DNA from: Thermodesulfobacteriota bacterium
GTDB lineage: Bacteria > Desulfobacterota_D > UBA1144 > Nemesobacterales > Mycalebacteriaceae
NCBI GenBank assembly: GCA_965226585.1
Contig: OZ245366.1
Location: 512,001-576,000, forward strand
Direction of reading: 5' to 3'
Length of the DNA stretch: 64,000 bases
Program-made: the position numbers and the translations under genes
Shown: positions 8,703 through 50,327 of the stretch, piece after piece
How positions within the stretch are numbered: the stretch's first letter is position 1
How the letters are laid out: each line of letters begins with the position of its first letter
The notes under the pieces: generated by a model
What the model was told of the DNA's origin: nothing
The model's input: the letters and a program-made list of their open reading frames with translations, nothing else
Databases searched by the model: none

Positions 8703-9370
8703 AAATGAACTCAGATCTTATAGAAGTCATCACAACTTACGCTACCAAGTCTCACGGAGACCTGAATGCCTTGTTATCTGGAAAGTCAAAAGACAACATC
8801 ACTTCTATTCTTGTTGACCTTCTCACCACTTACTACAATGACAAAAACTCATCAACTTTAAGAGAGTTTGTTCTGGTGTCCCTGAGTGGTTTTGAACAGA
8901 ACCTCGGTAAAATCGGCTATAACGGTTACAAGCATGAGAGTATTGGTAGCAAGACAAAATATTGCGAAGCGAAACCCAAGAATGTCAACACAAACGATCC
9001 GAAGCCAAAGAAGCTGAATGGCGGGGGAAACTTTACGGACTACACTTGGGCGAGACTGGAAAAAGATAAGTCGTCTAACCCAACAATGCTTGTTGGGGGC
9101 TTTATAGACGGACGCCTGATTTACATATTCAAGTTTCCTTTCAATTCAAAGGATTTTGTTGATAGGCTGGAGCACCAGTTAAAAAACAAGTTTCCTGACG
9201 GAGACGTAAGTGGATACTTTCTCAGAAGTGCTTCTTTTGGCTTAAAACACTACAAAAGTATTGCTAATTTGGATGTTGAAGTTTTTGTAAAAGAGCAAGA
9301 TTTACCTAAATATGAAAACAGCATTACAAAAGGGTTATACTCTTTCATAGAGGAGTCCTTTACCGAATAA
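8699..9370 (+). CDS. Putative type II restriction endonuclease
   Basis: Coupled (TAATG) to a DNA MTase; GYNGYK...CEAKP resembles a PD-(D/E)xK core. Start may be ATG 8705. Confidence 0.7.
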   Translation: MKMNSDLIEVITTYATKSHGDLNALLSGKSKDNITSILVDLLTTYYNDKNSSTLREFVLVSLSGFEQNLGKIGYNGYKHESIGSKTKYCEAKPKNVNTNDPKPKKLNGGGNFTDYTWARLEKDKSSNPTMLVGGFIDGRLIYIFKFPFNSKDFVDRLEHQLKNKFPDGDVSGYFLRSASFGLKHYKSIANLDVEVFVKEQDLPKYENSITKGLYSFIEESFTE

Positions 9371-10251
9371 TGGAACTCAAGCCTGAACAGTACAGAAACA
9401 AACTTATATGTGGTGATACTTTCGAGGCTTTGCGGTCAATCCCAAACGGTGTTGTAGATGTTGGTGTAACCTCTCCTCCATATAACAAGAAAGAAAAAAA
9501 CAAGGGCTGGTTGGTAAAGAATGTTGTCTACTCTGAATACAAGGACAAAGTTCCTGAAAACAAGTATCAGGCAAATCAAGTTGCTGTTTTGAACGAAATC
9601 CACCGTATAACCAAAAGCGATGGGTCTTTTTTCTATAATCACAAAATCAGGTGGGAAGATGGAGAGATGTTTCACCCTATGGATTGGTTGAGAAAGACCG
9701 ATTGGGTTGTTAAGCAAGAAATCATCTGGGATAGGACTATCGCCGCGAATATAAGAGGGTGGAGATATTGGCAAGTTGAGGAGAGGATTTACTGGCTTTA
9801 CAAGCCGATTGGTACAAACAAGAAAGGGAGAGAGCTGGCATCAAAGGATGCAAAGTTAACCTCAGTGTGGCGAGCAGTTCCTGAAAACAACAATCCTCAT
9901 CCCGCTCCTTTTCCCCTTTGGCTTCCGGCAAGGATCATCATTTCACTTTTAGAAGGTAAAAAAAGCGGTCTTGTTTTAGACCCGTATGTTGGTAGTGGCA
10001 CAACTGCGGTTGCCGCAAAATTGCTCGGCTTTGATTATCTGGGTGTGGATATTGGAGAGGAGTACATTGACTACGCTGAAGAACGTCTTGCAAATGCTGA
10101 AAGAGAAAGAAGCAAGATTATGGGTGAGCAGAGCCTTCATAAAGTCCACAAGACCTTTAAGTCCAGAAAAGAAAGGGGAGAAAATACTGGCAAATATCGT
10201 AAAGAGGAAGAATCTAACAAGCCTCTAACACTCTTTGAGCATAGGAAATAG
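9370..10251 (+). CDS. Site-specific DNA methyltransferase, beta class (N4-C/N6-A; SPPY suggests m4C)
   Basis: VTSPPYN motif IV precedes HPAPFP and LDPYVGSGTT motif I. Confidence 0.92.
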   Translation: MELKPEQYRNKLICGDTFEALRSIPNGVVDVGVTSPPYNKKEKNKGWLVKNVVYSEYKDKVPENKYQANQVAVLNEIHRITKSDGSFFYNHKIRWEDGEMFHPMDWLRKTDWVVKQEIIWDRTIAANIRGWRYWQVEERIYWLYKPIGTNKKGRELASKDAKLTSVWRAVPENNNPHPAPFPLWLPARIIISLLEGKKSGLVLDPYVGSGTTAVAAKLLGFDYLGVDIGEEYIDYAEERLANAERERSKIMGEQSLHKVHKTFKSRKERGENTGKYRKEEESNKPLTLFEHRK

Positions 10252-37950: not shown

Positions 37951-39141
37951 ATGAAAGACTTGACCCCCACAGAGCAACTTGAGATTATCAAGAGGGGCGC
38001 AGACAATGTTGTCTCCGACTCTGAACTTATTGACAAGTTGAGCAAGACCCGACCCCTGCGCGTCAAAGCCGGATTTGACCCCACCGCGCCCGACCTTCAC
38101 CTTGGGCATTGTGTTCTTTTGAAGAAACTGAGGGATTTTCAAGATCTGGGGCACACGGTTGTTTTTCTCATAGGCGATTTCACGGCGCAGATAGGCGATC
38201 CAAGCGGCAGGGCGGACGAGAGACCTCTTCTTTCTCCCGAAGACATAAAGAAAAACGCGCAAACCTACAAAAGCCAGGTTTTTCCCATACTGAACAAAGA
38301 GCAGACCGAAGTGCGTTTCAACTCGGAATGGCATTCCGGCATGAGTTCGGAAGACCTTTTGCGCCTTGCGTCAATGGCGAATGTTGCCAATTTGCTTGAA
38401 AGGGATGACTTCAAAACCCGCTACAAGGCGGGAAAACCCATATCAATAAAGGAGTTTCTCTATCCGCTGATACAGGCGTATGACTCTGTTGCCCTTGAGG
38501 CGGATGTTGAGATAGGCGGCACAGACCAGACTTTTAATCTTTTGCTTGGCAGAGAGGTGCAGAAGCGGTTTAATCAGCCTCAGCAGGCGGCGGTTTTTCT
38601 GCCCATACTTGAAGGGCTTGACGGCGTGAACAAGATGTCAAAATCGCTTGGCAATTACATAGCGGTAAAAGACACGCCTGAGGATGTGTTTGCAAAGGTT
38701 ATGTCTGTTTCCGATGAGATGATGTGGAGATATTACGACCTGCTCAGTTCAAAGACTGCGGATGAGGTTAAGGGTTTGAAAAAAGAGCATCCTATGGACG
38801 CGAAAAAGACGCTTGCGTTTGAGATAACGGCGTGGCTGAACGGTGAAAAAGAGGCAAAACAGGCGGAAGGCGCGTTTGCGGGCAAGTTTTCAAAAAGGGA
38901 GTTTCCCGAAGATGCTCCTGAAAAAGAGGTTTCACGCGGAAATATAAAGACGGTTCTTGATTTCGCGGTTGAGGTTTCGGATTCGCTGAAAAGCAGGGCG
39001 GAGGCGAAACGTCTGATAGCGCAGGGCGGATTGACAATAAACGGCGAGAAGTATTCCGACCACGGCGCAAACGCGCCTGAGGGAGAGGTTTTTGAGGTTA
39101 AAATTGGGAAGAAGGAGTTTGTGAGGGCGCGGGTGGGGTGA
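37951..39141 (+). CDS. tyrS: Tyrosine--tRNA ligase
   Basis: GFDPTAPDLHLGH, GGTDQ, KMSKS, C-terminal S4 domain; start at ATG 37951. Confidence 0.97.
   Translation: MKDLTPTEQLEIIKRGADNVVSDSELIDKLSKTRPLRVKAGFDPTAPDLHLGHCVLLKKLRDFQDLGHTVVFLIGDFTAQIGDPSGRADERPLLSPEDIKKNAQTYKSQVFPILNKEQTEVRFNSEWHSGMSSEDLLRLASMANVANLLERDDFKTRYKAGKPISIKEFLYPLIQAYDSVALEADVEIGGTDQTFNLLLGREVQKRFNQPQQAAVFLPILEGLDGVNKMSKSLGNYIAVKDTPEDVFAKVMSVSDEMMWRYYDLLSSKTADEVKGLKKEHPMDAKKTLAFEITAWLNGEKEAKQAEGAFAGKFSKREFPEDAPEKEVSRGNIKTVLDFAVEVSDSLKSRAEAKRLIAQGGLTINGEKYSDHGANAPEGEVFEVKIGKKEFVRARVG
39103..39135 (+). repeat. 33-bp direct repeat, copy 1 (tyrS 3' end)
   Basis: ATTGGGAAGAAGGAGTTTGTGAGGGCGCGGGTG, identical to 40997-41029. 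Confidence 0.95.
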
Positions 39142-39180
39142 ATCTGTTATATTAGACAGCAACGGGAGACACGCCCAGAT

Positions 39181-40077
39181 ATGAAAACGCCCGCCATTCC
39201 GCATTTTTACCGCCAGAGATTGTTGCTTGCTCTTATAAGAGAGTTTGAAGGCGACATGAACAGAACCGATCTTCATAAACGCCTTTTCCTGTTTATGCGG
39301 GAAGAGGGGCGCAGTGAATACGAGTTTTTTCCTTACAAATACGGTTGCTGGTCAATGAACTGCGACAACGACCTGCAGAGATTGTCCCGGTTAGGATGGC
39401 TTGAGACGGGTGATAACGTCAGGGCGACAAAAACTGATACTCCGCCGGATTTAATAAAAGAGTCCGATTGGGAGAAGTTAAAAAGTTTTGCGGACGGAAT
39501 AAGGGGCTGGAGTTATAAGGATTTAATAAAACATGTTTATACGGAGCATCCCTATTACGCGATTAACAGTAACATAGCGGAAGAATATCTTTCCGGTGAT
39601 GAATTAGAAGTTGTTAAACAAAATCGTCCGTCCGCGCAGGGCAGGGCTTTATACACTATCGGATATGAGGGCATATCGTTTGAGCGATATGTCAACCGCC
39701 TTATAGAGAACGATATAAAGTTGCTTTGTGATGTGCGTAAAAATCCTCTGAGCAGAAAGACGGGTTTTTCCAGAGGAACATTGCAGAGTTTGTTACCAAA
39801 AGTCGGGATTGAGTATGTTCATATTCCGGAACTCGGTATTGAAGGCGGCATGAGGCGCAACTTGGAAACAGTGGATGACTATAAAAAGCTTTTCAGAGGA
39901 TATACGCGCACGCTTCCCGGGCGGGAAAAATGGCTGTTTGATATTTCCGGATTGGTAAAAGAGCACGAGCGGGTTGCCTTGACGTGTTTTGAATCCGACC
40001 CCCGGATGTGTCACAGGAGTTGTGTCAGCGATTACATTTCCACACTGGAACCTAAATTAAACATAGAGCATATTTGA
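39181..40077 (+). CDS. DUF488 protein with N-terminal SocA/Panacea-like winged-helix region
   Basis: TIGYEG, LCDVRKNPLSRK, PELG, LTCFESDPRMCHR; N-terminal LHKRLFL...YEFFPYKYG. Confidence 0.85.
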   Translation: MKTPAIPHFYRQRLLLALIREFEGDMNRTDLHKRLFLFMREEGRSEYEFFPYKYGCWSMNCDNDLQRLSRLGWLETGDNVRATKTDTPPDLIKESDWEKLKSFADGIRGWSYKDLIKHVYTEHPYYAINSNIAEEYLSGDELEVVKQNRPSAQGRALYTIGYEGISFERYVNRLIENDIKLLCDVRKNPLSRKTGFSRGTLQSLLPKVGIEYVHIPELGIEGGMRRNLETVDDYKKLFRGYTRTLPGREKWLFDISGLVKEHERVALTCFESDPRMCHRSCVSDYISTLEPKLNIEHI

Positions 40078-40904
40078 TGCCGAAAGAGCGAATTTTTATT
40101 ACAGTCAAAACTTATCCCGCCATATCGAAAAAATATGACGAGTTGGTCTGCACAGCCGGCATTCGTGAAAACGGGAATTGGGTGCGGATATACCCCGTTC
40201 CATTCAGGAAACTTGGTCAAGACGACAGATACAAGAAATACCAGTGGGTGGAGATAGACCTTCAAAAGAACACAAGTGACAAAAGGCCTGAAAGCTTCAG
40301 CCCCACAGATATTGAGAATATTGAAGTCGGGGATTTTATTGATACAGGCGACGGTTGGAAAGAAAGAAAAAAGATTATCTTTCAAAACCAGACCGCTTAC
40401 ACAAATCTTGAGGAGATTATTGGCGAAGCAAACAGAAATGAACTTTCAATTGTAATTTTCAAGCCTTCAGAAATTAAAGGTTTTATGGTTGAAGAATCTG
40501 ACCCTGAGTGGTCTGAAGAGAGGATAAAACTTCTTGAGGCAAGAGCCGGACAGAAAACTCTTTTCTCTTATCCCGGTGATATTGTCAAAAAGTTCAAGAG
40601 GGTTTCCAAACTGCCTTATAAATTTTCCTACAAGTTCTGTGACGACACGGGTAAAGAATCCACTTTGATGATAGAGGATTGGGAGATAGGGGCTCTTTAC
40701 TGGAACTGTTTGGAAGACAGCGGGGGAGATAAAGAGATTGCCGTTCAAAAAGTGCGAGAGAAGTATGAGCGGGAAATGCTTCAAAAGGATTTATATTTCT
40801 TTCTGGGGACAACAAAAGAGCACCACGGGCGGGCACACAATCCGTTTGTTATTATCGGGATTTTCTATCCGCCGAAAGAGAGTCAGAAGTCTTTTGGCTA
40901 TTAG
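40077..40904 (+). CDS. Conserved hypothetical DUF488 partner (dual-OB-like, tentative)
   Basis: TVKTYP, ELVCTAG, WVRIYP, DKRPES, EDWEIG, FFLGT; coupled to the DUF488 gene (TGATG overlap). Confidence 0.7.
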   Translation: MPKERIFITVKTYPAISKKYDELVCTAGIRENGNWVRIYPVPFRKLGQDDRYKKYQWVEIDLQKNTSDKRPESFSPTDIENIEVGDFIDTGDGWKERKKIIFQNQTAYTNLEEIIGEANRNELSIVIFKPSEIKGFMVEESDPEWSEERIKLLEARAGQKTLFSYPGDIVKKFKRVSKLPYKFSYKFCDDTGKESTLMIEDWEIGALYWNCLEDSGGDKEIAVQKVREKYEREMLQKDLYFFLGTTKEHHGRAHNPFVIIGIFYPPKESQKSFGY

Positions 40905-40977
40905 TTGTAGATTGCCGGGTGGAAAATAAAGAAGTAGAAGGGGTAAGTGTAGAGTTGGGGTTTGAAGAGGGTTAGTG

Positions 40978-41035
40978 AGAGAGTTTTGAAGTTAAGATTG
41001 GGAAGAAGGAGTTTGTGAGGGCGCGGGTGAAATAA
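40978..41035 (+). pseudogene. Second copy of the tyrS 3' end (ESFEVKIGKKEFVRARVK*)
   Basis: Matches tyrS EVFEVKIGKKEFVRARVG* with synonymous changes GAG/GAA and AAA/AAG and its own stop. Confidence 0.85.
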
Positions 41036-41045
41036 AAGGGTTTAA

Positions 41046-44000
41046 TCATTCAGCCCATTCATCTGCGAGCAGTTCCGCTTGTTCAAGTATTCTTTCCGTT
41101 GCAATCAACTCTTCATCCGGCGGATAGCCGTATTTTCTTAAAAGCCGTTTTACAATCGTTCTTAATTTCGACCGCACACTTTCTTTTATTGTCCAGTCAA
41201 TAGAGGTGTTTTGTTTCACCTTGTTCACAAGCATACGGGCGAGTTCCCTTAAATTTTCGTCTTTCATCACTTCTTTCGCGCTCTCGTTCATAACCAGCGC
41301 GTCATAGAAAGCGACTTCATCATTTGACAGACCCATTTCTCCGGCTTTTTCATCGGAAGCCCTTATTTCCCGCGCCATTGATATTAATTTGTCCAGAATT
41401 TCCGCCGCCGTCAGCAGATTGTTTTTGTATCTTCTGATAGCCGTTTCAAGCATTTCGGAAAACTTTCTGCTCTGCGCCAGATTTTGCTTCGTTCTCTGTT
41501 TTATTTCGTCTCCGAGTATTCTTTTAAGCAGTTCCAGAGCAAGGTTTTTGTGCTTCATCCCTTTTATTTCTTCAAGGAAACTGTCTGAAAGAATTGATAT
41601 GTCGGGTTTTTTTATTCCTGCGGCGTCAAATATGTCAATAACGCCGTCCACAACAACGGCTCTGTCAACTATCTGCCTGATAGCCGTTTCAATTTCAGAG
41701 TCGCTTTTGCCGCTTCCCGTCCGGCTGAATTTGGCAAGGCGCGCTTTTACCGCCTGAAAAAATCCAACCTCAGCTTTTATTTCAATCGCTCTGCGGTCGG
41801 GAATTGACATGGCAAACGCTTTTGACAGTGAATTAACCTCTCCGGAAAACCTTTCTTCTCCGTTTTCCAGAGACAGAATATATTCCTCAGATTCCAGAAT
41901 TAATTCCAGTTTTCTTCCGGTTTCCGCCGTGAAATACTCCCCGTAGTCAAAACGGTCAAACATTGCCTTAACCACCTCGTATTTTTCCAGCATCACCTTC
42001 ACCGCGTCTTTCTGTTCAAACGCGGGTTTTCCCTTGCCGCCGCTTTTTGTGTAGGAGGAGAGGGCGAGTTTCAAATCAGACGCTATGCCGATATAGTCAA
42101 CAACCAGACCGCCTTCCTTGTCTTTATAAACCCTGTTCACCCGCGCTATTGCCTGCATCAGGTTGTGTCCGCTCATTATTTTGTCGATATAAATGGTGTC
42201 CAGACACGGGGCGTCAAAACCCGTCAGCCACATATCGCGCACAATCACAATTTGCAAAGGGTCCGAAGGGTCAACGAACCTTTTTCTCATTCTTTTTCTT
42301 TCGTCTTTTGTTGTCGCGTGGTTCCGCCACTCGTGCGGGTCGCTTGCCGCTGAGGTCATAATAACCTTCACAGCCCCTTTGTTTTTGTCATCGTGATGCC
42401 ATTCGGGGCGGCGCGAGATGATTTCGTCATACATTGCAACGGCGATTTTGCGGCTTGTGGCAACTATCATCGCCTTGCCCTCGCATGCTTCCCGCCTTGC
42501 GTCAAAATGTTTCAGGATATCCTCCACAACGGTTTTCCGGCGGTCTTTGTGTCCGATAATGGCTTCCTGCCGTGTCCATTTTGCTTTGGCTTTGTCAGCG
42601 TCCGTTGATTCTCTGTTTTCAACGATTGATTCAATTTCCGTGTCCAGTTCTTCTTTTTCCTCTTCTTTGAGGTGAACTTCAACAAGGCGCGATTCGTAAT
42701 AAATCGGCACTGTCGCCCCGTCTTCAACCGCTTGTTCTATGTCATAAACGTCTATGTAGTTTCCGAAAACAGCCGGTGTTGAAATATCCTCTCTTTCAAT
42801 CGGTGTTCCCGTAAAGCCCACAAAAGAGGCGTTTGGCAGAGCGTCTCTAAGATATTTCGCAAATCCGTAATTAGTTTTCACCCCGTCTTTAACAAAATGG
42901 GTTTTTGCCCCGAATCCGTATTGACTGCGGTGCGCTTCGTCCGCTATGACAACTATGTTTTTTCTTTCGGAGAGGAGTTCAAATGTTTCGCCGCCGTCTT
43001 CGGGTGAAAACTTTTGAATAGTTGAAAAAACCACACCGCCGCCTTTTACTTTCAGCAATTCTTTCAGACTTCTGCGGCTGTCCGCCTGCACGGGGTCTTG
43101 TCTGAGAAGTGATTGCCCGGCGGCGAAAGATTCAAACAATTGTCCGTCAAGGTCGTTGCGGTCTGTAATAACAACAACTGTCGGGTTTGCCATTTTCGGA
43201 TTTATAACGAGCAGTCCGGCATAAAACAGCATAGACAGGGATTTTCCGCTTCCCTGTGTGTGCCATACCACACCCGCCCTGCAATCTCCCTGTTTTTGCT
43301 CTCTGATATCCGGCAACCCGTATTCCCCCGGCGCTTCATCCGCTTCGTCCATTTTTTCGCCGGAAGCTCTGATTGTGGAATTAACGGCTCTTTTTACGGC
43401 GTGATACTGGTGATAGGCGGCTATTTTCTTTTCTTTTTCTATGGTTATCGCCTGTGTTTCGCTGTCTTCCTTCTTTGTTTTTTCAAACACGGTGAAGTGG
43501 CGTATCAGGTCGAGCAGAACATCGGGGCGGAGCATACCTTTTATAAGGGTTTCAATTTGCGGTGTTGTGGCGGAGTTTTCTTTTTTCCCGTCAACGGTTT
43601 TCCATGCCATAAAGCGAGATTCGCCGGAAGTGATAGACCCGGCTTTTGCTTCAAGCCCGTCTGATGCGACAAGAACGCCGTTATAGCGGAACAGTCCCGG
43701 AATGGCTTTTTTATAGGTTTGCAGTTGTTCAAACGCTTTTTGAACGGTTGCGTTTTCATCCGCAGGGTTTTTAAGTTCTATCACCGCAAGCGGCAGACCG
43801 TTCACAAACAGCAGAACATCGGGGCGTTTGGTTATGTTGTTTTCCTTAACGGAGAACTGATTACAGACGGCAAAGTCGTTATTTTGTATATTTTCAAAAT
43901 CAATCAGGCAGACACTTGCCCCAACCGTGTCGCCGTCTTTCTGGTATTCATCCTTAACGCCCTCAACAAGCCATTTGTAGAACGTCTCGTTGCTTTCTAT

Positions 44001-44264
44001 GATGTTTGCGTGTGAGAGCCCCTTTATCTGCCGCAAGGCGTGAGTTTTTACCGTATCGGGAAGGTTCGGGTTGAGGCTGTCAATAGCGCGTTTCAGGCGT
44101 TGTTCCAGTATGACTTCCGAAAGGCTTTGGCGTTCTGTTTCCTGTTGTTCAGGGAGAATGTAGGTATAGCCCTGCTTTTCAAGCAGTTTTACTGTGTGTT
44201 CTTCAACATCGGATTCGTAGAGGGATGTCATGTGTTCATTGTTTGGCAAGTCTTGGATTTTCAT
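41046..44264 (-). CDS. hsdR: Type I restriction endonuclease subunit R
   Basis: RPDVLLFVNGLPLAVIELK, HTQGSGKS, DEAHRSQ, FTGTP, LTGFDAP, QAIARVNR. Confidence 0.97.
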   Translation of the reverse strand: MKIQDLPNNEHMTSLYESDVEEHTVKLLEKQGYTYILPEQQETERQSLSEVILEQRLKRAIDSLNPNLPDTVKTHALRQIKGLSHANIIESNETFYKWLVEGVKDEYQKDGDTVGASVCLIDFENIQNNDFAVCNQFSVKENNITKRPDVLLFVNGLPLAVIELKNPADENATVQKAFEQLQTYKKAIPGLFRYNGVLVASDGLEAKAGSITSGESRFMAWKTVDGKKENSATTPQIETLIKGMLRPDVLLDLIRHFTVFEKTKKEDSETQAITIEKEKKIAAYHQYHAVKRAVNSTIRASGEKMDEADEAPGEYGLPDIREQKQGDCRAGVVWHTQGSGKSLSMLFYAGLLVINPKMANPTVVVITDRNDLDGQLFESFAAGQSLLRQDPVQADSRRSLKELLKVKGGGVVFSTIQKFSPEDGGETFELLSERKNIVVIADEAHRSQYGFGAKTHFVKDGVKTNYGFAKYLRDALPNASFVGFTGTPIEREDISTPAVFGNYIDVYDIEQAVEDGATVPIYYESRLVEVHLKEEEKEELDTEIESIVENRESTDADKAKAKWTRQEAIIGHKDRRKTVVEDILKHFDARREACEGKAMIVATSRKIAVAMYDEIISRRPEWHHDDKNKGAVKVIMTSAASDPHEWRNHATTKDERKRMRKRFVDPSDPLQIVIVRDMWLTGFDAPCLDTIYIDKIMSGHNLMQAIARVNRVYKDKEGGLVVDYIGIASDLKLALSSYTKSGGKGKPAFEQKDAVKVMLEKYEVVKAMFDRFDYGEYFTAETGRKLELILESEEYILSLENGEERFSGEVNSLSKAFAMSIPDRRAIEIKAEVGFFQAVKARLAKFSRTGSGKSDSEIETAIRQIVDRAVVVDGVIDIFDAAGIKKPDISILSDSFLEEIKGMKHKNLALELLKRILGDEIKQRTKQNLAQSRKFSEMLETAIRRYKNNLLTAAEILDKLISMAREIRASDEKAGEMGLSNDEVAFYDALVMNESAKEVMKDENLRELARMLVNKVKQNTSIDWTIKESVRSKLRTIVKRLLRKYGYPPDEELIATERILEQAELLADEWAE

Positions 44265-45298
44265 TTGCGACTCGCTAGGTGTTGTGTTATTTCAAAGAAC
44301 AGGCTTTGTACTTCGGTGGGCATTGATCTAAGAATTGCTTCTGTGCAAATAGAAGAGTAGAACTGCTTTACATCGTTATCTCTCAAAATCAGTGATATTT
44401 GACTATTTTTTGAGGCACCCACAATCAGATTTTTAATTTGTTTGATTGAAAAGAAATCAACAAAATCTTGAAGAGTTTCTATAATCTCATGGGTTGTAAT
44501 AAATTCATCAGAGTTTATTAGGTTTTCAATTTCTGATGTCCAATCAACAGTTGTGTTCATTAATAATTCTCTGCTTGTATAGTCAATAATTGTATGCAAT
44601 GCTCCTTCTGGGGTTTCTATGCGGAGAACCCAATTGTTGTCAGTATTGAAGTAAGCATCTGTCACATCTTTCTCGGTGATGTCTATTTTTAATTGTAAAG
44701 ACAATGAATCAAGAAAATAATCCGTAAGTAGAAATTCTTTAATGAGTTTCTTGAATTCGTTGAAGTCTTTGATGGTTCTTATGTGTCTGTTCTCGGCAAA
44801 AGATTTTGACAGGAGAGGATCATCCGTTAAAAAGAATATTTGTTTGTCTTTGTTTTTTTCGATATATTCTAAGGTGGTAAAGTAAATGTAAGCATCTTTA
44901 AATCCCTTGTCTGAAGTCTCATCAAATGGTGGTTTGTTGTTTAATGCCAATTTCTTGATCTCAGTTAAAGTCTTGTGGTTTGCGTCTTCCAGTTCAATTT
45001 CAATATAAGGAATGTTCTCTTCACTCTCTAATTCAGAAACTATATTGTCAATATCAATATTCTCTACTTTCCTTCTTCTCGTTCCTGTCAGAGAGAGAAA
45101 TATATTAGAAAGGAAACTTTTTTGTTCTTTTTGCAAACTCTCTATTTTTTGTTTTTTGATTTCGTCAATAACCATACTTGGAATAATTATATCTGCGAAC
45201 TCTGCAATTTTCTCTAATTCTTCTCGATAACCTAAAAAAGACCCGCCCCCCGTATTACGAGCCTTGCTTGTATCAACAACTACTTTGTATTTATTCAT
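44261..45298 (-). CDS. PIN-domain nuclease (DUF4935/PIN_8-like)
   Basis: VVVDTS, IPSMVIDE, KPPF...KGFKDAYI, FLTDD acidic tetrad pattern. Confidence 0.8.
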   Translation of the reverse strand: MNKYKVVVDTSKARNTGGGSFLGYREELEKIAEFADIIIPSMVIDEIKKQKIESLQKEQKSFLSNIFLSLTGTRRRKVENIDIDNIVSELESEENIPYIEIELEDANHKTLTEIKKLALNNKPPFDETSDKGFKDAYIYFTTLEYIEKNKDKQIFFLTDDPLLSKSFAENRHIRTIKDFNEFKKLIKEFLLTDYFLDSLSLQLKIDITEKDVTDAYFNTDNNWVLRIETPEGALHTIIDYTSRELLMNTTVDWTSEIENLINSDEFITTHEIIETLQDFVDFFSIKQIKNLIVGASKNSQISLILRDNDVKQFYSSICTEAILRSMPTEVQSLFFEITQHLASRK

Positions 45299-46750
45299 TT
45301 AATGATTTACCTTCGCTTTCCCACACATCAATTTTGACAAAAGCACATCACGCAAACTCTCAAGAGTGCGAACTTGGTCTATGTTTGATTTTTTCTTCGT
45401 GAAATATTGTTCTGCCACACTATCAAAATTAAGAATTGTTTTCGTGTTTGGAAACTTCAAGGTGAGTCCTGATACAAGTTGTTTGTCAACATGAGGTATT
45501 GCAGAACCAGTTGTATTTTCTTTTATGTATTGTTCTCGGTTTTTGAGGAAAGAAAATATAAAGAAGGGATAGTTGAAACTCTCTAATGGTTTGTATAATC
45601 CTATGGTGGAACCGACAATGCCACGAAAGCCGATTTCCGTTCTTCCTGAACTTGCGCCATCCATAACCATTAAAACATCTTTGCTCTCAGCAACTACTCC
45701 TCCATCTTTTTCTGAATACAGAACTTTTCCTGTGTCAAATGTTTCTATGAGTATTTGAGGTTCAGAACCCTCAAAATAGGCATCCTCTGCCCTTGTAGGT
45801 TTGCGCCCTTTGGTAAATTCTACTAATTTACCGAGTTTTCTTTCCTCCCAATCCTCATCCGCATCTTCCACAAACCATTTGCGGAATAATGCTTGAGCTG
45901 TATCTTCCAAAGTTTTGTTTTGGCGATGAAGCAGTTCTATTTTGTCGTCCAGAGAGGATAGGATTTCGGCAATGGCTTTTTGTTGGGGGAGTGGTGGGAG
46001 TAGTATTTGAAAACCGCTAATCTGTTTAGCGTTTACCCCCGGCTGAGCTGACCCACCTTTTACCTGATCTATAAAAAGTCTCCAATTAGATGATTGCAAA
46101 ATATGCCCAATATAAAAAGGGTCTGCTATTTCTTTGTTAATTTTATATCTGATTAAGTACGAAGCAAAAACACATTCAACACTGTCTCTGATGATTTTAT
46201 TGTACCCTGTCGTAGCACCTGTTCTTGCGATAACAATATCTCCTTTTGCAAGGGAATATTTTATTTTGTCTTTGTTTCCAATTTTACAATAAGGAACGTT
46301 GTCCCAATTTATCAATTTCGGAACAACATCTGTAATTCTTAAGAATTTGGGACCAATTGATTCATTGCTAGCACTTGCGGTATATCCATAAGAAACATCT
46401 AAGCATATCTCCCCCAACTTTACTTCCCGCCACCCTTCCGGTATGGAACTTTGCTGAACAACAACATATTTCTTTTTGATGTTTTCCTTAAATGAATCGG
46501 GGATACTTTCCCAATCCATTACATCAACCGAAACCAGAAGGGAACTTTCAACAAAGGATTCTTTCAGGTTAGATACCTCACCTGAATTAGAGTCAAAAAC
46601 AGCCAAGTCCAAATCGGATGTTTCCGATGCTTTCCATGTTACACGCGAGCCATAAGCCCAAACAGTTTTGTTGGGGATATGACGTTTGATAATTGTTTTC
46701 AGCAATTTTAGTTGCTTCGGTTCCAAATCTATGAGTTGTTTTTCATTCAT
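45299..46750 (-). CDS. hsdS: Fusion of minimal nucleotidyltransferase (MNT) domain and type I specificity subunit with two TRDs
   Basis: aa 1-100 carry YGSRVTWKASETSDLDL (GS-x10-DxD); then PEGWREVKLG, PPLPQQKAIAEILSSLDDKI, WEERKLG, LRDVLLSKLM. Confidence 0.93.
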   Translation of the reverse strand: MNEKQLIDLEPKQLKLLKTIIKRHIPNKTVWAYGSRVTWKASETSDLDLAVFDSNSGEVSNLKESFVESSLLVSVDVMDWESIPDSFKENIKKKYVVVQQSSIPEGWREVKLGEICLDVSYGYTASASNESIGPKFLRITDVVPKLINWDNVPYCKIGNKDKIKYSLAKGDIVIARTGATTGYNKIIRDSVECVFASYLIRYKINKEIADPFYIGHILQSSNWRLFIDQVKGGSAQPGVNAKQISGFQILLPPLPQQKAIAEILSSLDDKIELLHRQNKTLEDTAQALFRKWFVEDADEDWEERKLGKLVEFTKGRKPTRAEDAYFEGSEPQILIETFDTGKVLYSEKDGGVVAESKDVLMVMDGASSGRTEIGFRGIVGSTIGLYKPLESFNYPFFIFSFLKNREQYIKENTTGSAIPHVDKQLVSGLTLKFPNTKTILNFDSVAEQYFTKKKSNIDQVRTLESLRDVLLSKLMCGKAKVNH

Positions 46751-47171
46751 TTTCCGCAGTTAGTTTCTCAAATATCTCTGTAGCATCTTCAATGAAGTCA
46801 CTAACTTGAGACAACACCCCTTTTGCTTTTTCTTCGCTGTAATCGTGAGTGCTATCTATTCTGGTTTGATTGTAACCCTTTTCTTTATCAACCCATATTT
46901 CCAAATCTTCAATTAAAAGGTTTTTATGCGCTTCTCTGAAAATGCCAACAGGAGAATTAGGCATTTTAGTAAGCCCTTGGTCTTCCAAGTGTTTTTTTAC
47001 CGATTTCCACAGAGTGTCATAGCAAATATCAAACCGCTTGATTAGCGACTCTTTTACCGCTTCCTTGTTAATTTCAGAAAGGTTCTGACTGTCCAGTTCC
47101 AAGTAATTTGCGTATTGCTCTTTCAATCTCTCAAGGGATTTTTCCAGTTTTTCATAATTAGTCTTGCTCAT
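46743..47171 (-). CDS. HEPN-fold nucleotidyltransferase substrate-binding protein (HI0074-like), putative RNase toxin
   Basis: SLIKRFDICYDTLWK, IFREA, RIDSTHDY (R-x4-H-x-Y). Confidence 0.88.
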   Translation of the reverse strand: MSKTNYEKLEKSLERLKEQYANYLELDSQNLSEINKEAVKESLIKRFDICYDTLWKSVKKHLEDQGLTKMPNSPVGIFREAHKNLLIEDLEIWVDKEKGYNQTRIDSTHDYSEEKAKGVLSQVSDFIEDATEIFEKLTAENE

Positions 47172-47172
47172 T

Positions 47173-48714
47173 TTATTTCTCCACTTTGATTTTTTTCAAA
47201 TTCGCCAGAATACGCTTATTCATCTCCGCCTCTTCCTTCACCTGCCCTTCAAACTCAGCTTTAAGTTCCGCAAAGCGTTCTCCAAAATCAAAATCATCTT
47301 CCACTTCCTCAAGCCCAACATAACGCCCCGGACTGAGAATATATTCCAACTCCGCCACCCTTTCTGTTTTAACCGAAGCGCAGAATCCGGGAACATCTTC
47401 ATAATCTCCGCTCTTTTTCCGCCATTCATGATAAACACCGGCAACCTTCGCTATGTCTTCATCGGCAAATTCCTTGTTTTTACGGCTGACGAGATGCCCC
47501 AGTTTGTCTGCGTCAATAAAAAGTATTTCATCCTCCCGTTTGCGGTCGCCGTTGTAGCCGTGCCGTTTGTTGGAAATGAACCATAAACAAGCGGGAATCT
47601 GCGTGTTGAGAAACAGTTTTCCCGGCAAATTGACTATGCAATCAACAAGTCCGGCATCAACAATACTCTTGCGGATAACATCCTCATTAGACGATTTGGA
47701 AGTTAGCGACCCTTTGGACAAAACAAAACCGGCAACGCCAGTTGGTGAAAGATGGTGGATGAAGTGCTGAACCCACGCAAAGTTGGCATTGCCCGGTGGC
47801 GGCGCGCCGTGTTCCCAGCGTCCGTCTTTCCGTAAAATATCGCCGCTCCAGTCGCTGTCGTTAAAAGGCGGATTGGCGAGAATAAAATCCGCCTTCAAAT
47901 CCTTGTGTTCATCACTCAGAAAAGAACCTTCAGTGTTCCATTTCACCTGACTGCCGTCTATCCCGCGAATGGCAAGATTCATGCGGGCAAGGTGATATGT
48001 GGTCTCGTTGCTCTCCTGCCCGTAGATGGAAATGTCGTTTATCTTTCCCTGATGTTCCTTAATGAACTTTTCACTCATCACAAACATACCGCCGCTTCCA
48101 CAGCACGGGTCAAAAACCCTGCCCTTATACGGCTCTATCATCTCAACAAGCAGTTTTACAATGGAAGCGGGCGTGTAGAACTGTCCGCCTTTCTGCCCCT
48201 CCGCGAGAGCAAATTGACCGAGAAAATACTCATAAACCTTGCCGAGAATGTCTTTTGCCTTCTCCGCTTCGCCTTTCAAGTCAATCTCATTGGTGATGAG
48301 GTCTATCAACCCCCCGAGCGATGTGGGAGACAAATTGGGCTTTGCGAATACTTTTGGCAAAATCCCCTTCAACTCAGGGTTGTCCCTCTCTATGACTCCC
48401 ATCGCCTCATCTACGATTTGCCCGATGGTTGGCTGTTTTGCCTGAGATTGAATGTTTGACCACCTCGCGTTCACCGGAACCCAGAAGATGTTTTCCGCTC
48501 TGTATTCATCCGGGTCTTCAGGGTTCGCGTGCTTGTAATCGCCTTTGCCTTCGGTGATTTTGGCGTGAAGCGTCTCAAAGGAATCGGATATGTATTTGAG
48601 AAATACCAAGCCAAGCACAATGTGCTTGTATCCCGCCGCATTAATGTTCTTGCGCAGTTTGTCCGCCGCAGCAAAAAGCGAACTCTCAAAACTTGGAAGT
48701 TTTGTTTCAGACAT
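47173..48714 (-). CDS. hsdM: Type I R-M methyltransferase subunit
   Basis: [26 protein letters not shown]; start could be 48714 or 48723. Confidence 0.97.
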
Positions 48715-48720
48715 GGCTTT

Positions 48721-48755
48721 CATTCTACACAAGGCGCGGTTTCACTCCAAAGCCC
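48721..48755 (-). promoter_or_regulatory. Promoter of the hsd operon (homologous to 50178-50212)
   Basis: TTGGAG-N17-TAGAAT, 7 nt before ATG 48714; no SD. Confidence 0.65.
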
Positions 48756-48756
48756 A

Positions 48757-48840
48757 AATTCACGCCAAAACCACAAAACCGCGTGAATTACCCCCACAAA
48801 ACACCCCCAATTCACGCCAAAACCGCAAAAACCCGTGAAT
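48757..48840. repeat. Two tandem units, each ATTCACG-N17-CGTGAAT, period 52 bp
   Basis: AATTCACGCCAAAACC(A/G)CAAAA at 48757 and 48809 (21/22 identical), each closed by CGTGAAT. Confidence 0.85.
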
Positions 48841-48846
48841 GCCCTC

Positions 48847-50136
48847 TCACCCCTTTCCCCACTTATAAACCCCTTCCATAACAAAACACCCCGCAACCAC
48901 ACCCGCCGCCACAATCACACCGCCCGGCTCTGTGCCGTATTGCTGAACCACAAGAGCAAAAAGGGCGACCAGACACAAAACCACTCCAAGCAAAGAGATT
49001 CCCCTGTTCCCGCCCGTAAATCCCGACAACCGGAATCCCGCGTAATTTACGGCGGCAAAAATTAATAAAAAACCTATGCTCCCCGCTGTGGATATGCTCT
49101 CCAGTTTCAAAGTGTTTGCCGCAATAACAGTCGCAACCGCCGTTATCATCAATCCAACCGGCTGATTCCAAAATAAAGCCGTCAACTGATGAGGCAATTC
49201 ATCATCCTCCGCTATCTCATAACTCACCCGGCTTCCGCCGTATAAAGAAGCGTTAATCGCGGAAAAAGTGGAAATTAACGCCGCAATCGTGATAACAACA
49301 AAACCCGCCCGCCCCAAAACCGGCTTGGCGGCTTCGGCAAGCACATAGTCCTGCGCCGAAGCAATATCCGCAAATGGCAAAGAACCAACCGTTACGGCGG
49401 CAATCACCACATAAAGACAAATGACAAAAATAACCGAAAAATAATAAGCGCGCGGAACATTTATTTCCGGCTTCCTGATGTCCGGCGCGGCGTTGGCTAT
49501 AAGTTCAAAACCCTCATACGCAACAAAAATAACCATCCCGCCCGTAAGCAGGTGGACGGGGCTTTCCCAACTCTCAGGCAAAAGCTGAGACAGATTGGGG
49601 TTGCCGTATAAACCGGCGATGCTGATGAAAACAAAAGACAGCAAAATCACAAGTTTGATGATTACCGCCCCGGACTCTATTTTGCCCACAACGGCGATGC
49701 TGTAATAGTTGATGGCGGTGGCAATAACGATGATGGCGGTGGCGTAGATGTGGAAATCCGCTGTGCTGTCTCCCGTAACGGCGAGAAGATTGGGCGCGTA
49801 AAATCCAAACGCCGATGTGTAGAGAGCAAGCATGATGATGTAACTCACCCACAACAAGTTGTTGATGCCGCCGCTGAAAACAGACTTGCCAAAACCCTGA
49901 TTGATGAACTTCACCGTGCCGCCCCTGTCCGGATAAGTCAGCGACAGGCGGACGTAGCTGTATGAGGTGATAAGGGCGATGATGCCCGCAATGAGAAAGG
50001 CAACCGGCGTTCCGCCCTGCGCCAGAGAAACGGCAAGCCCCAAAACGGCGAAGATGCCGCCGCCCACCATACCGCCGATACCAATGGAGATCGCCTCCTT
50101 CAACCCGATTCGCGCTTCTTTCGCCCCGTTTGCCAT
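48847..50136 (-). CDS. APC family amino acid permease
   Basis: GIGGMVGGGIF in TM1, FVAYEGFE in TM6, about 12 TM helices. Confidence 0.93.
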   Translation of the reverse strand: MANGAKEARIGLKEAISIGIGGMVGGGIFAVLGLAVSLAQGGTPVAFLIAGIIALITSYSYVRLSLTYPDRGGTVKFINQGFGKSVFSGGINNLLWVSYIIMLALYTSAFGFYAPNLLAVTGDSTADFHIYATAIIVIATAINYYSIAVVGKIESGAVIIKLVILLSFVFISIAGLYGNPNLSQLLPESWESPVHLLTGGMVIFVAYEGFELIANAAPDIRKPEINVPRAYYFSVIFVICLYVVIAAVTVGSLPFADIASAQDYVLAEAAKPVLGRAGFVVITIAALISTFSAINASLYGGSRVSYEIAEDDELPHQLTALFWNQPVGLMITAVATVIAANTLKLESISTAGSIGFLLIFAAVNYAGFRLSGFTGGNRGISLLGVVLCLVALFALVVQQYGTEPGGVIVAAGVVAGCFVMEGVYKWGKG

Positions 50137-50177: not shown

Positions 50178-50212
50178 CATTCTACACAAACCGCCGCTTT
50201 ACCTCAAAGCCC
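50178..50212 (-). promoter_or_regulatory. Promoter of the APC permease (homologous to 48721-48755)
   Basis: TTGAGG-N17-TAGAAT; 28/35 ungapped identity to the hsdM promoter. Confidence 0.65.
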
Positions 50213-50327
50213 CGAAACCGCGCAAAAGGGCGAATTCACGGCATAAAACGGGCGTTTTTACCCCACAAAACGGCAAAGGCGGCGCGGGAGGGCTGTTTGC
50301 AAATATCGCGGGGGCAATCCGTTTGTC

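Follow-up and report, generated by a model that had tools for sequence, protein, structure and literature searches.

Operon architecture

The 64,000-nucleotide window analysed here (contig OZ245366.1, positions 512,001 to 576,000, from a Thermodesulfobacteriota bacterium) contains, on the minus strand from 48714 down to 41046, the genes hsdM-HEPN-[MNT-HsdS]-PIN-hsdR. This is a type I restriction-modification (R-M) operon in which an MNT domain, the putative antitoxin of the HEPN protein encoded just upstream, is fused to the specificity subunit HsdS. The features are as follows (TRD, target recognition domain).

47173..48714, minus strand: hsdM, type I methyltransferase, 513 residues from the ATG at 48714; PF02384 and PF12161 (N6_Mtase); DPCCGSGG and NPPF intact
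46743..47171, minus strand: predicted HEPN RNase toxin of the HI0074/PF08780 family, class I HepT, 142 residues; PF08780 at E = 2e-20, TIGR01987 (HI0074) above its cut-off
45299..46750, minus strand: whole MNT-HsdS gene, 483 residues in a single frame; Polbeta and two Methylase_S stretches
46451..46750, minus strand: putative MNT antitoxin domain, residues 1-100 of the fusion; G34, S35, D46, D48 and D76; PF18765; HI0073 (1NO5) at E = 5e-20
46634..46636, minus strand: codon of Trp39 in the MNT G-loop, aromatic in the fused MNTs of this lineage and mostly Gly in unfused ones
45299..46450, minus strand: HsdS portion of the fusion; TRD1, central conserved helix, TRD2 and C-terminal conserved helix; model matches HsdS structures 1YF2 and 7VS4
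44261..45298, minus strand: PIN_12 (PF16289) protein, 345 residues; variable cargo of the slot between hsdS and hsdR
41046..44264, minus strand: hsdR, type I endonuclease/translocase of the PF11867 (HindI-like C-terminus) family, 1072 residues; PD..ExK, GSGKS, DEAH and QAIARVNR intact

The successive intergenic distances are 1, -8, 0 and -4 nt, the last being an ATGA overlap between PIN and hsdR, and gene order and spacing bear out the single operon proposed in the initial annotation. Catalytic motifs are unbroken in all five genes, and the type I make-up is complete: hsdM, a two-TRD hsdS and hsdR, each with intact motifs. The HsdM is 75-76% identical to those of four related loci (L001-L004). 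A scan for promoters and terminators returned 11 and 17 sites, respectively, about as many as in shuffled sequence. No RNA data set was listed among the public sequencing runs that carry the sequence.

The HEPN motif reads RIDSTHDY, which gives the expected R-x4-H-x-Y (R104, H109, Y111); all three residues are invariant in 21 aligned relatives, and the family profile matches structures 1JOG and 8XDJ. Class I HepT/MntA systems are defined by an RX4HXY-bearing HEPN of PF01934 or PF08780 whose neighbour is a GSX10DXD MNT (PMC7641770; here and below, papers are cited from the portions of their text available to us). The pair in the window falls within this sequence definition.

The MNT-HsdS protein

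Polbeta (PF18765) spans residues 17-98 of the fusion, with the motif GS-RVTWKASETS-DLD and D76 as the third Asp; the PADLOC model Specificity_I covers residues 107-482. There is neither a stop nor a Met between MNT and TRD1, so the description of an intact GS-x10-DxD nucleotidyltransferase in frame with HsdS stands. The MNT also scores above the PF01909 cut-off; the NCBIfam MntA equivalog gives 33 bits, below its cut-off of 60. Public contigs from all three runs bridge the junction without gaps (45927-47314 with no other letters in X1 and X2; 45830-46632 in X3), but they come from one sample, possibly the source of the assembly, and are not independent support. Such support comes from relatives: a search with residues 1-125 found 166 proteins among 308 candidates, and of the best 120 of these, 119 carry both PF18765 and PF01420 and 117 keep GSx10DxD. 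Contigs of the same sample part ways at the central conserved region of hsdS (window 45830-45930; loose ends), and the X3 record is identical to the window over MNT-TRD1 with a variant central helix, a hint that the population or co-resident organisms carry alternative alleles of TRD2.

An AlphaFold2 model of the fusion (145-row alignment) has a predicted local distance difference test score (pLDDT) of 91.8 and a predicted template modelling score (pTM) of 0.81. Model residues 6-102 superimpose onto HI0073 (1NO5) with Z = 17.7 and an r.m.s. deviation of 1.1 Å for 97 residues, and onto 8XEO with Z = 14.9; residues 99-483 superimpose onto HsdS structures. A complex prediction of MNT-HsdS with two HEPN copies scored 0.38 (best control, 0.00), a weak value that may be accounted for by likeness to the solved complex 8XEH. 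Of 157 solved complexes, 116 reach the mark used, as do 2 of 215 mismatches; at 0.60 or below it is reached by 18 of the 157 and both mismatches; the runs share at least 75% of contacts, and partner pLDDT is at least 79. Given that a like complex has already been solved, we did not use this prediction as evidence of MNT-HEPN binding.

Recurrence of the fusion

The fusion is present in 240 of 282 fetched proteins, 235 of which keep GSx10DxD; when representatives at 50% identity were searched with a profile, 133 further identifiers came up, 93 of them fused. A Met shortly ahead of the first TRD tryptophan occurs in 21 of the 240. Twelve have a tandem MNT-MNT-HsdS arrangement, which is seen in loci L156, L157, L162, L145 and L158 and in proteins P0121-P0147; the second MNT motif is lost in L145 and L158. 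In a sub-clade of five proteins (P0086, P0091, P0112, P0113, P0116) the third Asp, D76, is replaced by Gly with GSx10DxD intact.

Carriers include Ca. Spongiihabitans (two), metagenome-assembled genomes of Nitrospirales and Porifericomitaceae, and Zymomonas mobilis ATCC 10988, whose plasmid pZMOB01 encodes hsdM-HI0074-MNT/HsdS-hsdR with no PIN gene. Genomes sampled from Gammaproteobacteria (301), the host's phylum (107), Nitrospirota (251) and Bacteroidota (301) yielded another 44 fused loci. In metagenomes, where 505 loci carry this HsdS subfamily, 9 of the 80 best-ranked are fused (7 distinct), each with an intact HEPN; this ranking favours fused loci, and the real fused share lies between ~2% and ~11%. 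None of 46 pattern matches in viral contigs was confirmed. The MNT-HsdS fusion is thus real and recurrent, and occurs in several phyla.

Conservation of the HEPN gene and the PIN gene as cargo

Besides the window there are 56 non-redundant fused loci, one of them truncated at the end of its contig. Of the remaining 55, 49 have a HEPN with intact RX4HXY immediately upstream (including L148, counted by eye after the distance cut of our script had missed its HEPN), and the HEPN is dead in three and missing in three. No HEPN was found in the 71 unfused loci of the metagenome set. The only unit seen with a HEPN but no MNT before hsdS (L141, hsdM-HEPN-hsdS) has a dead HEPN motif. HEPN is thus lost with MNT kept, and is dead where MNT is absent, an asymmetry that fits an active toxin in need of its antitoxin.

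The C-terminal HsdS helix is absent from only two fused loci, L149 and L171, and HEPN is dead in both, compared with 4 of 50 helix-keeping loci (tails read by eye; the numbers are tiny). L167 and L173 have an internally deleted HsdS, in L173 without TRD1, but retain both conserved helices and an intact HEPN. Together with L003 in genome G043, which has an intact HEPN but only an hsdR stub (see below), these four loci fit a need for the HsdM-binding scaffold rather than for HsdR or specificity, although general decay explains the pattern too. Separately, the region upstream of the fusion in L001 (5416-7004), L003 (5667-7004) and L144 contains stacked HEPN copies or a second HEPN/MNT pair, along with duplicated 3' ends of hsdM; these are a trace of recombination at the hsdM end.

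The best explanation of these data, to which we assign a probability of about 0.5, is a HEPN/MNT toxin-antitoxin (TA) pair whose antitoxin supply is locked to HsdS. The loci lacking an upstream HEPN bear on another proposal, that the tethered MNT tunes restriction by AMPylating HsdR, HsdM or a bound anti-restriction protein, HEPN silencing being ancestral. It could draw on the intact MNT motif in all three of these loci (L170, L175, L176) and on the tandem MNTs. However, L175 and L176 are very close to HEPN-bearing relatives on a quick tree of MNT alone, and recent loss explains them; we regard a second substrate as very improbable.

The initial annotation had also counted the PIN nuclease as part of the system, and this did not hold. 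In 39 fused loci, none of the 43 proteins encoded downstream matches PIN_12, and the slot downstream of fused hsdS holds AAA/OLD, Shedu, TIR, Abi_2, DUF3800, Swt1-HEPN, Fic or nothing. A homologue occurs in one other of 111 genomes, split in two and behind an MNT-HsdS of the other lineage, and PIN_12 is also present in unfused operons without HEPN or MNT (L071, L022). The window protein retains its acidic motifs (VVDT, IDEI, KDAYI, TDD), and its gene has a GC content of 0.33, compared with 0.47 for hsdR. PIN is independent cargo, and no conserved part of the system.

Fused and unfused forms

The genome searches gave 44 fused loci, and of the 163 free MNTs that they also provided, 8 lie unfused before hsdS (within 1.3 kb). 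Other cargo of the same slot (Fic, Bro-N, Abi_2, PIN, DUF1016 and others) is fused in 0 of 19 metagenome loci; one unrelated N-terminal extension of 151 residues was seen in that set. A single clade of fused MNTs is rejected (p-AU, the approximately unbiased test, 2.6e-59; 59 versus 40 rows, 3 long or odd rows excluded). On the HEPN+MNT tree, the fusion state changed at least 12 times along well-supported branches, with gains not separable from fissions. In 48 scored loci, HsdM belongs to one family in 40 and to another in 6. Median identity among close relatives (300 pairs, 57 proteins) is 67% for MNT, 88% for the central helix, 23% for TRD1 and 22% for TRD2; by this measure MNT acts like a conserved flank while the TRDs turn over. 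L169 and L174 were considered as orphan loci and ruled out, as hsdM lies 7 kb upstream and hsdR 13-15 kb downstream.

The same comparison could be read as a neutral ratchet: a mobile TA pair lands upstream of hsdS, read-through erases the hsdS start, and the fused form persists only because it can no longer be cut out, with Trp39 (see below) only stabilising the packing. Free MNTs of the same lineages are ~3 times as common as fused ones in our sample, near-identical HsdS proteins exist in both states, and HsdS of these hosts tolerates further insertions and C-terminal fusions (P0006, P0139, P0148); moreover, HEPN has been lost in close relatives that still carry MNT-HsdS (L170, L175, L176). 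A ratchet does not readily account for the lack of fusion among the other cargo, for the use of one HsdM family by 40 of 48 scored loci, or for the change of a conserved catalytic-loop Gly that accompanies the fusion state in 9 of 12 independent pairs. We consider it unlikely, and continue to prefer an antitoxin supply locked to HsdS.

A fusion-linked residue in the MNT G-loop

Trp39 is position 6 of GSx10DxD. It is Trp in 36 of 56 fused but only 2 of 162 unfused MNTs; Gly occupies the position in 127 of the 162, including all 11 that precede hsdS unfused. Within the HI0073-like lineage (120 rows), 32 of 34 fused MNTs have Trp or Phe here, compared with 8 of 86 unfused ones; of 12 independent pairs, 9.1 support the link and 0.0 contradict it (median p 0.004). 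Over all 175 rows, once column 39 and the adjoining columns had been taken out along with 5 tandem rows, the count for 12 independent pairs is 7.1 for and 0.0 against (median p 0.016). As Trp39 was spotted after viewing the sequences, these p-values are post hoc, for one column of ~100. A single clade of the fused aromatic rows in the HI0073-like half is rejected (p-AU 1e-65). Stand-alone relatives ~55-62% identical to the window MNT mostly have Gly, whereas fused ones at ~40% have Trp. The 8 unfused aromatic MNTs look like fissions, being nested among fused clades. Within the HI0073-like lineage, then, Trp39 tracks the fusion. A residue change linked to fusion suggests that MNT is structurally integrated with HsdS, and Trp39 may pack on HsdS or HsdM.

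These observations also invite a reading as a PrrC-like guard. Ocr or ArdA (DNA mimics) or Stp (a destabiliser), acting on M2S or R2M2S, would alter the contact between the MNT G-loop and HsdS; AMPylation would stop or unmodified HEPN be freed, ending in abortive infection. The fusion-linked residue does sit within the catalytic loop, where it displaces the Gly of most unfused MNTs, and every Trp-type locus with a scored HsdM falls in one HsdM family. The deeper-alignment model (pTM 0.81, pLDDT ~90 around Trp39) hints weakly that the domains hold a fixed pose. Precedents exist in PrrC and PARIS (PMC12707154), and release of unmodified HEPN at low ATP has been proposed for Legionella (PMC11586414). 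Against a guard, HEPN is intact where the cognate HsdR is missing (L003 in genome G043, where hsdR is a 75-residue stub and no hsdR of the cognate family was found in the genome, the best full-length one being at 28%) or TRD1 is (L173). AMPylation is covalent, so that the modified pool would need a de-AMPylase, and none was identified here; unfused and split-off versions also occur. G043 argues against a need for HsdR; M2S may be needed, and no locus without hsdM was seen among those examined. We rank this guard second, as a tentative possibility. Its boldest form would be that an AMP-transferase acquired repeatedly by type I R-M systems silences an RNase toxin, that a convergent catalytic-loop Trp wires its activity to the state of HsdS, and that anti-restriction proteins which bind or destabilise M2S turn the antitoxin off. 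We put this forward as a speculative idea; if true, it would be a covalent, enzyme-based R-M guard, unlike PrrC and PARIS.

Proposed mechanism

The ranking at which we arrive places the lock on HsdS supply first, followed by the allosteric guard, the neutral ratchet and the second substrate. By analogy with class I HepT/MntA biochemistry, HEPN would be a toxic RNase, and MNT likely silences it by oligoAMPylation of Tyr111; neutralisation in those systems is covalent and ATP-dependent (PMC7641770, PMC13000451, PMC11586414). With Trp39 putatively docking MNT on HsdS or the M2S core, silencing would likely depend on the supply and folded state of HsdS, but on neither HsdR, DNA specificity nor PIN. 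MNT would travel within the conserved 5' flank during TRD swaps, and exit of the TA pair from the cargo slot would take the hsdS start along. Deletion or silencing of hsdS would leave fresh HEPN unmodified, with growth arrest as the penalty. The outcome would be a mutual lock that maintains the specificity locus, probably with a low-ATP response in addition. Type I systems alone cause little post-segregational killing, and HsdS without HsdM is often unstable. A HepT/MntA pair from Shewanella stabilises a plasmid (PMC4621449).

This bears on the central idea of the initial annotation, that fusion to HsdS ties toxin silencing to the integrity of the R-M complex. The tie to HsdS has gained ground, the fusion being conserved and repeatedly formed and Trp39 suggesting integration; dependence on the whole complex is weakened by L003/G043, L167, L173, L194 and L197.

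Several points weigh against the preferred explanation. The fused excess is inflated: the query held ~25 HsdS residues and ~65 lower-scoring free matches lie outside the sample, making 44:8 an upper estimate. The operon exists unfused and stable on Acetobacter plasmids (L007-L009; 3 read directly), and HsdS at 94% identity is found both fused and unfused. Stand-alone MNTs nested among fused ones adjoin intact HEPNs (L194, with Trp; the L197 group, with Phe or Leu), so MNT can work without HsdS and the dependence is not absolute. A second MNT lineage lacks the aromatic signature (13 fused: 8 Gly, 3 Asn, 2 Asp), and a search of HsdS for a residue co-varying with Trp39 found none, the top columns reflecting subfamily sampling. 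A frameshift past MNT spares the antitoxin; the lock would guard against deletion, not point inactivation.

One candidate coupling residue and a natural fused/unfused pair from non-pathogenic bacteria that can be cultured make guard versus lock directly testable: Zymomonas mobilis pZMOB01 (fused, Trp) and the Acetobacter plasmids (unfused, Gly) are sister groups on the HEPN+MNT tree. We dropped the Zymomonas ZM4 hsdSp deletion (PMC8432527) as a natural antitoxin knock-out, as the available text does not name a nucleotidyltransferase and the plasmid was absent from the plasmid search. One of the unfused Acetobacter operons has the antiviral reverse transcriptase drt3a annotated 2.7 kb past hsdR (L008:10834-11128).

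The fusion likely makes silence of the toxin depend on HsdS, and may provide a fallback shutdown for cells whose restriction has been lost or comes under attack. Deleting hsdS for better transformability could unleash the toxin, and the annotation 'restriction endonuclease subunit S' conceals the putative antitoxin.

Neighbouring features

Short direct repeats (36 nt, 89%) lie upstream of hsdM (48721-48903), and a related 35-nt pair surrounds an amino-acid permease gene (50178-50271). Convergent with hsdR is a two-gene DUF488 cassette (39181-40904, plus strand) matching the PADLOC candidate PDC-M19A/B (E = 5e-101 and 1e-112). The tyrS 3' end is duplicated on either side of it (39080-39160 and 40974-41054; 81 nt, 79% identical, with a 44-nt core at 95%), suggesting that the cassette integrated at the tyrS end. 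An unrelated adenine methyltransferase-like gene lies in a low-GC stretch (9370-10251, plus strand; CcrM model E = 2e-18, far below cut-off). Elsewhere in the genome (G000:C1) are a second, free HEPN/MNT pair (1439710-1440437; RNDTSHNY, Gly at the Trp39 position, MNT 42% identical), a further type I R-M operon with Fic-like and other cargo (481874-491534) and a methylase and HsdS-like pair (123728-127365).

Comparison with known systems

The initial annotation knew of no functional study of this fusion. We found no description of it in the literature searched, which largely excludes subscription journals: the available text of PMC2701414 and PMC3632139 does not mention MNT-HsdS, and the portion of the PMC7641770 supplement at hand has no relevant match. 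Anantharaman 2013 (PMC3710099) describes HEPNs clustering with R-M operons and PF08780 HEPNs now and then fused to MNT or methylases, with no mention of an MNT-HsdS fusion in the available text.

The closest relatives are class I HepT/MntA (Yao et al. 2020, PMC7641770), HI0074/HI0073 (1JOG, 1NO5) and the HEPN-MNT pair of 8XDJ/8XEH (PMC11586414), which share a PF08780 RX4HXY HEPN beside a GSX10DXD MNT. Unlike in these, the window MNT is the N-terminal domain of a 483-residue HsdS within a type I operon, and unlike HI0073 and most free MNTs, which have Gly, it carries Trp in the G-loop. The trigger of HepT/MntA is described as an open question (PMC7641770, discussion). In the FhepTA MNT-HEPN fusions (Yao et al. 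2026, PMC13000451), MNT is likewise fused via its C-terminus through a short linker, and fusion stabilises an otherwise unstable MNT; there, however, MNT is joined to the toxin itself, whereas in the window it is joined to the R-M specificity subunit, with the toxin encoded by a gene of its own.

PrrC of the type IC EcoprrI locus is also a HEPN RNase encoded within a type I R-M operon (PMC3710099, PMC12707154). It is an ABC-ATPase-HEPN protein kept inactive by EcoPrrI and released by Stp and dTTP (PMC12707154, PMC3710099). The window HEPN differs from PrrC/RloC in being a stand-alone protein of 142 residues with PF08780 only, no ABC-ATPase fusion and its own enzymatic antitoxin; unlike with PrrC, one genome suggests that silencing can do without HsdR. 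Payne et al. (bioRxiv 10.1101/2024.01.29.577857) describe defence genes embedded in core immune operons, where they occupy similar variable cargo slots, and the PIN gene fits this description; in the available text those embedded genes are not fused to a core subunit, and the main text contains no MNT, nucleotidyltransferase or HsdS term.

Few R-M guards have been characterised, and here the putative antitoxin is physically part of a well-understood machine. Two things are new relative to the literature searched: an antitoxin-HsdS fusion that joins two known kinds of system, HepT/MntA TA and type I R-M, in an architecture visible in public annotations, and a Gly to Trp/Phe change in the G-loop that tracks the fusion.

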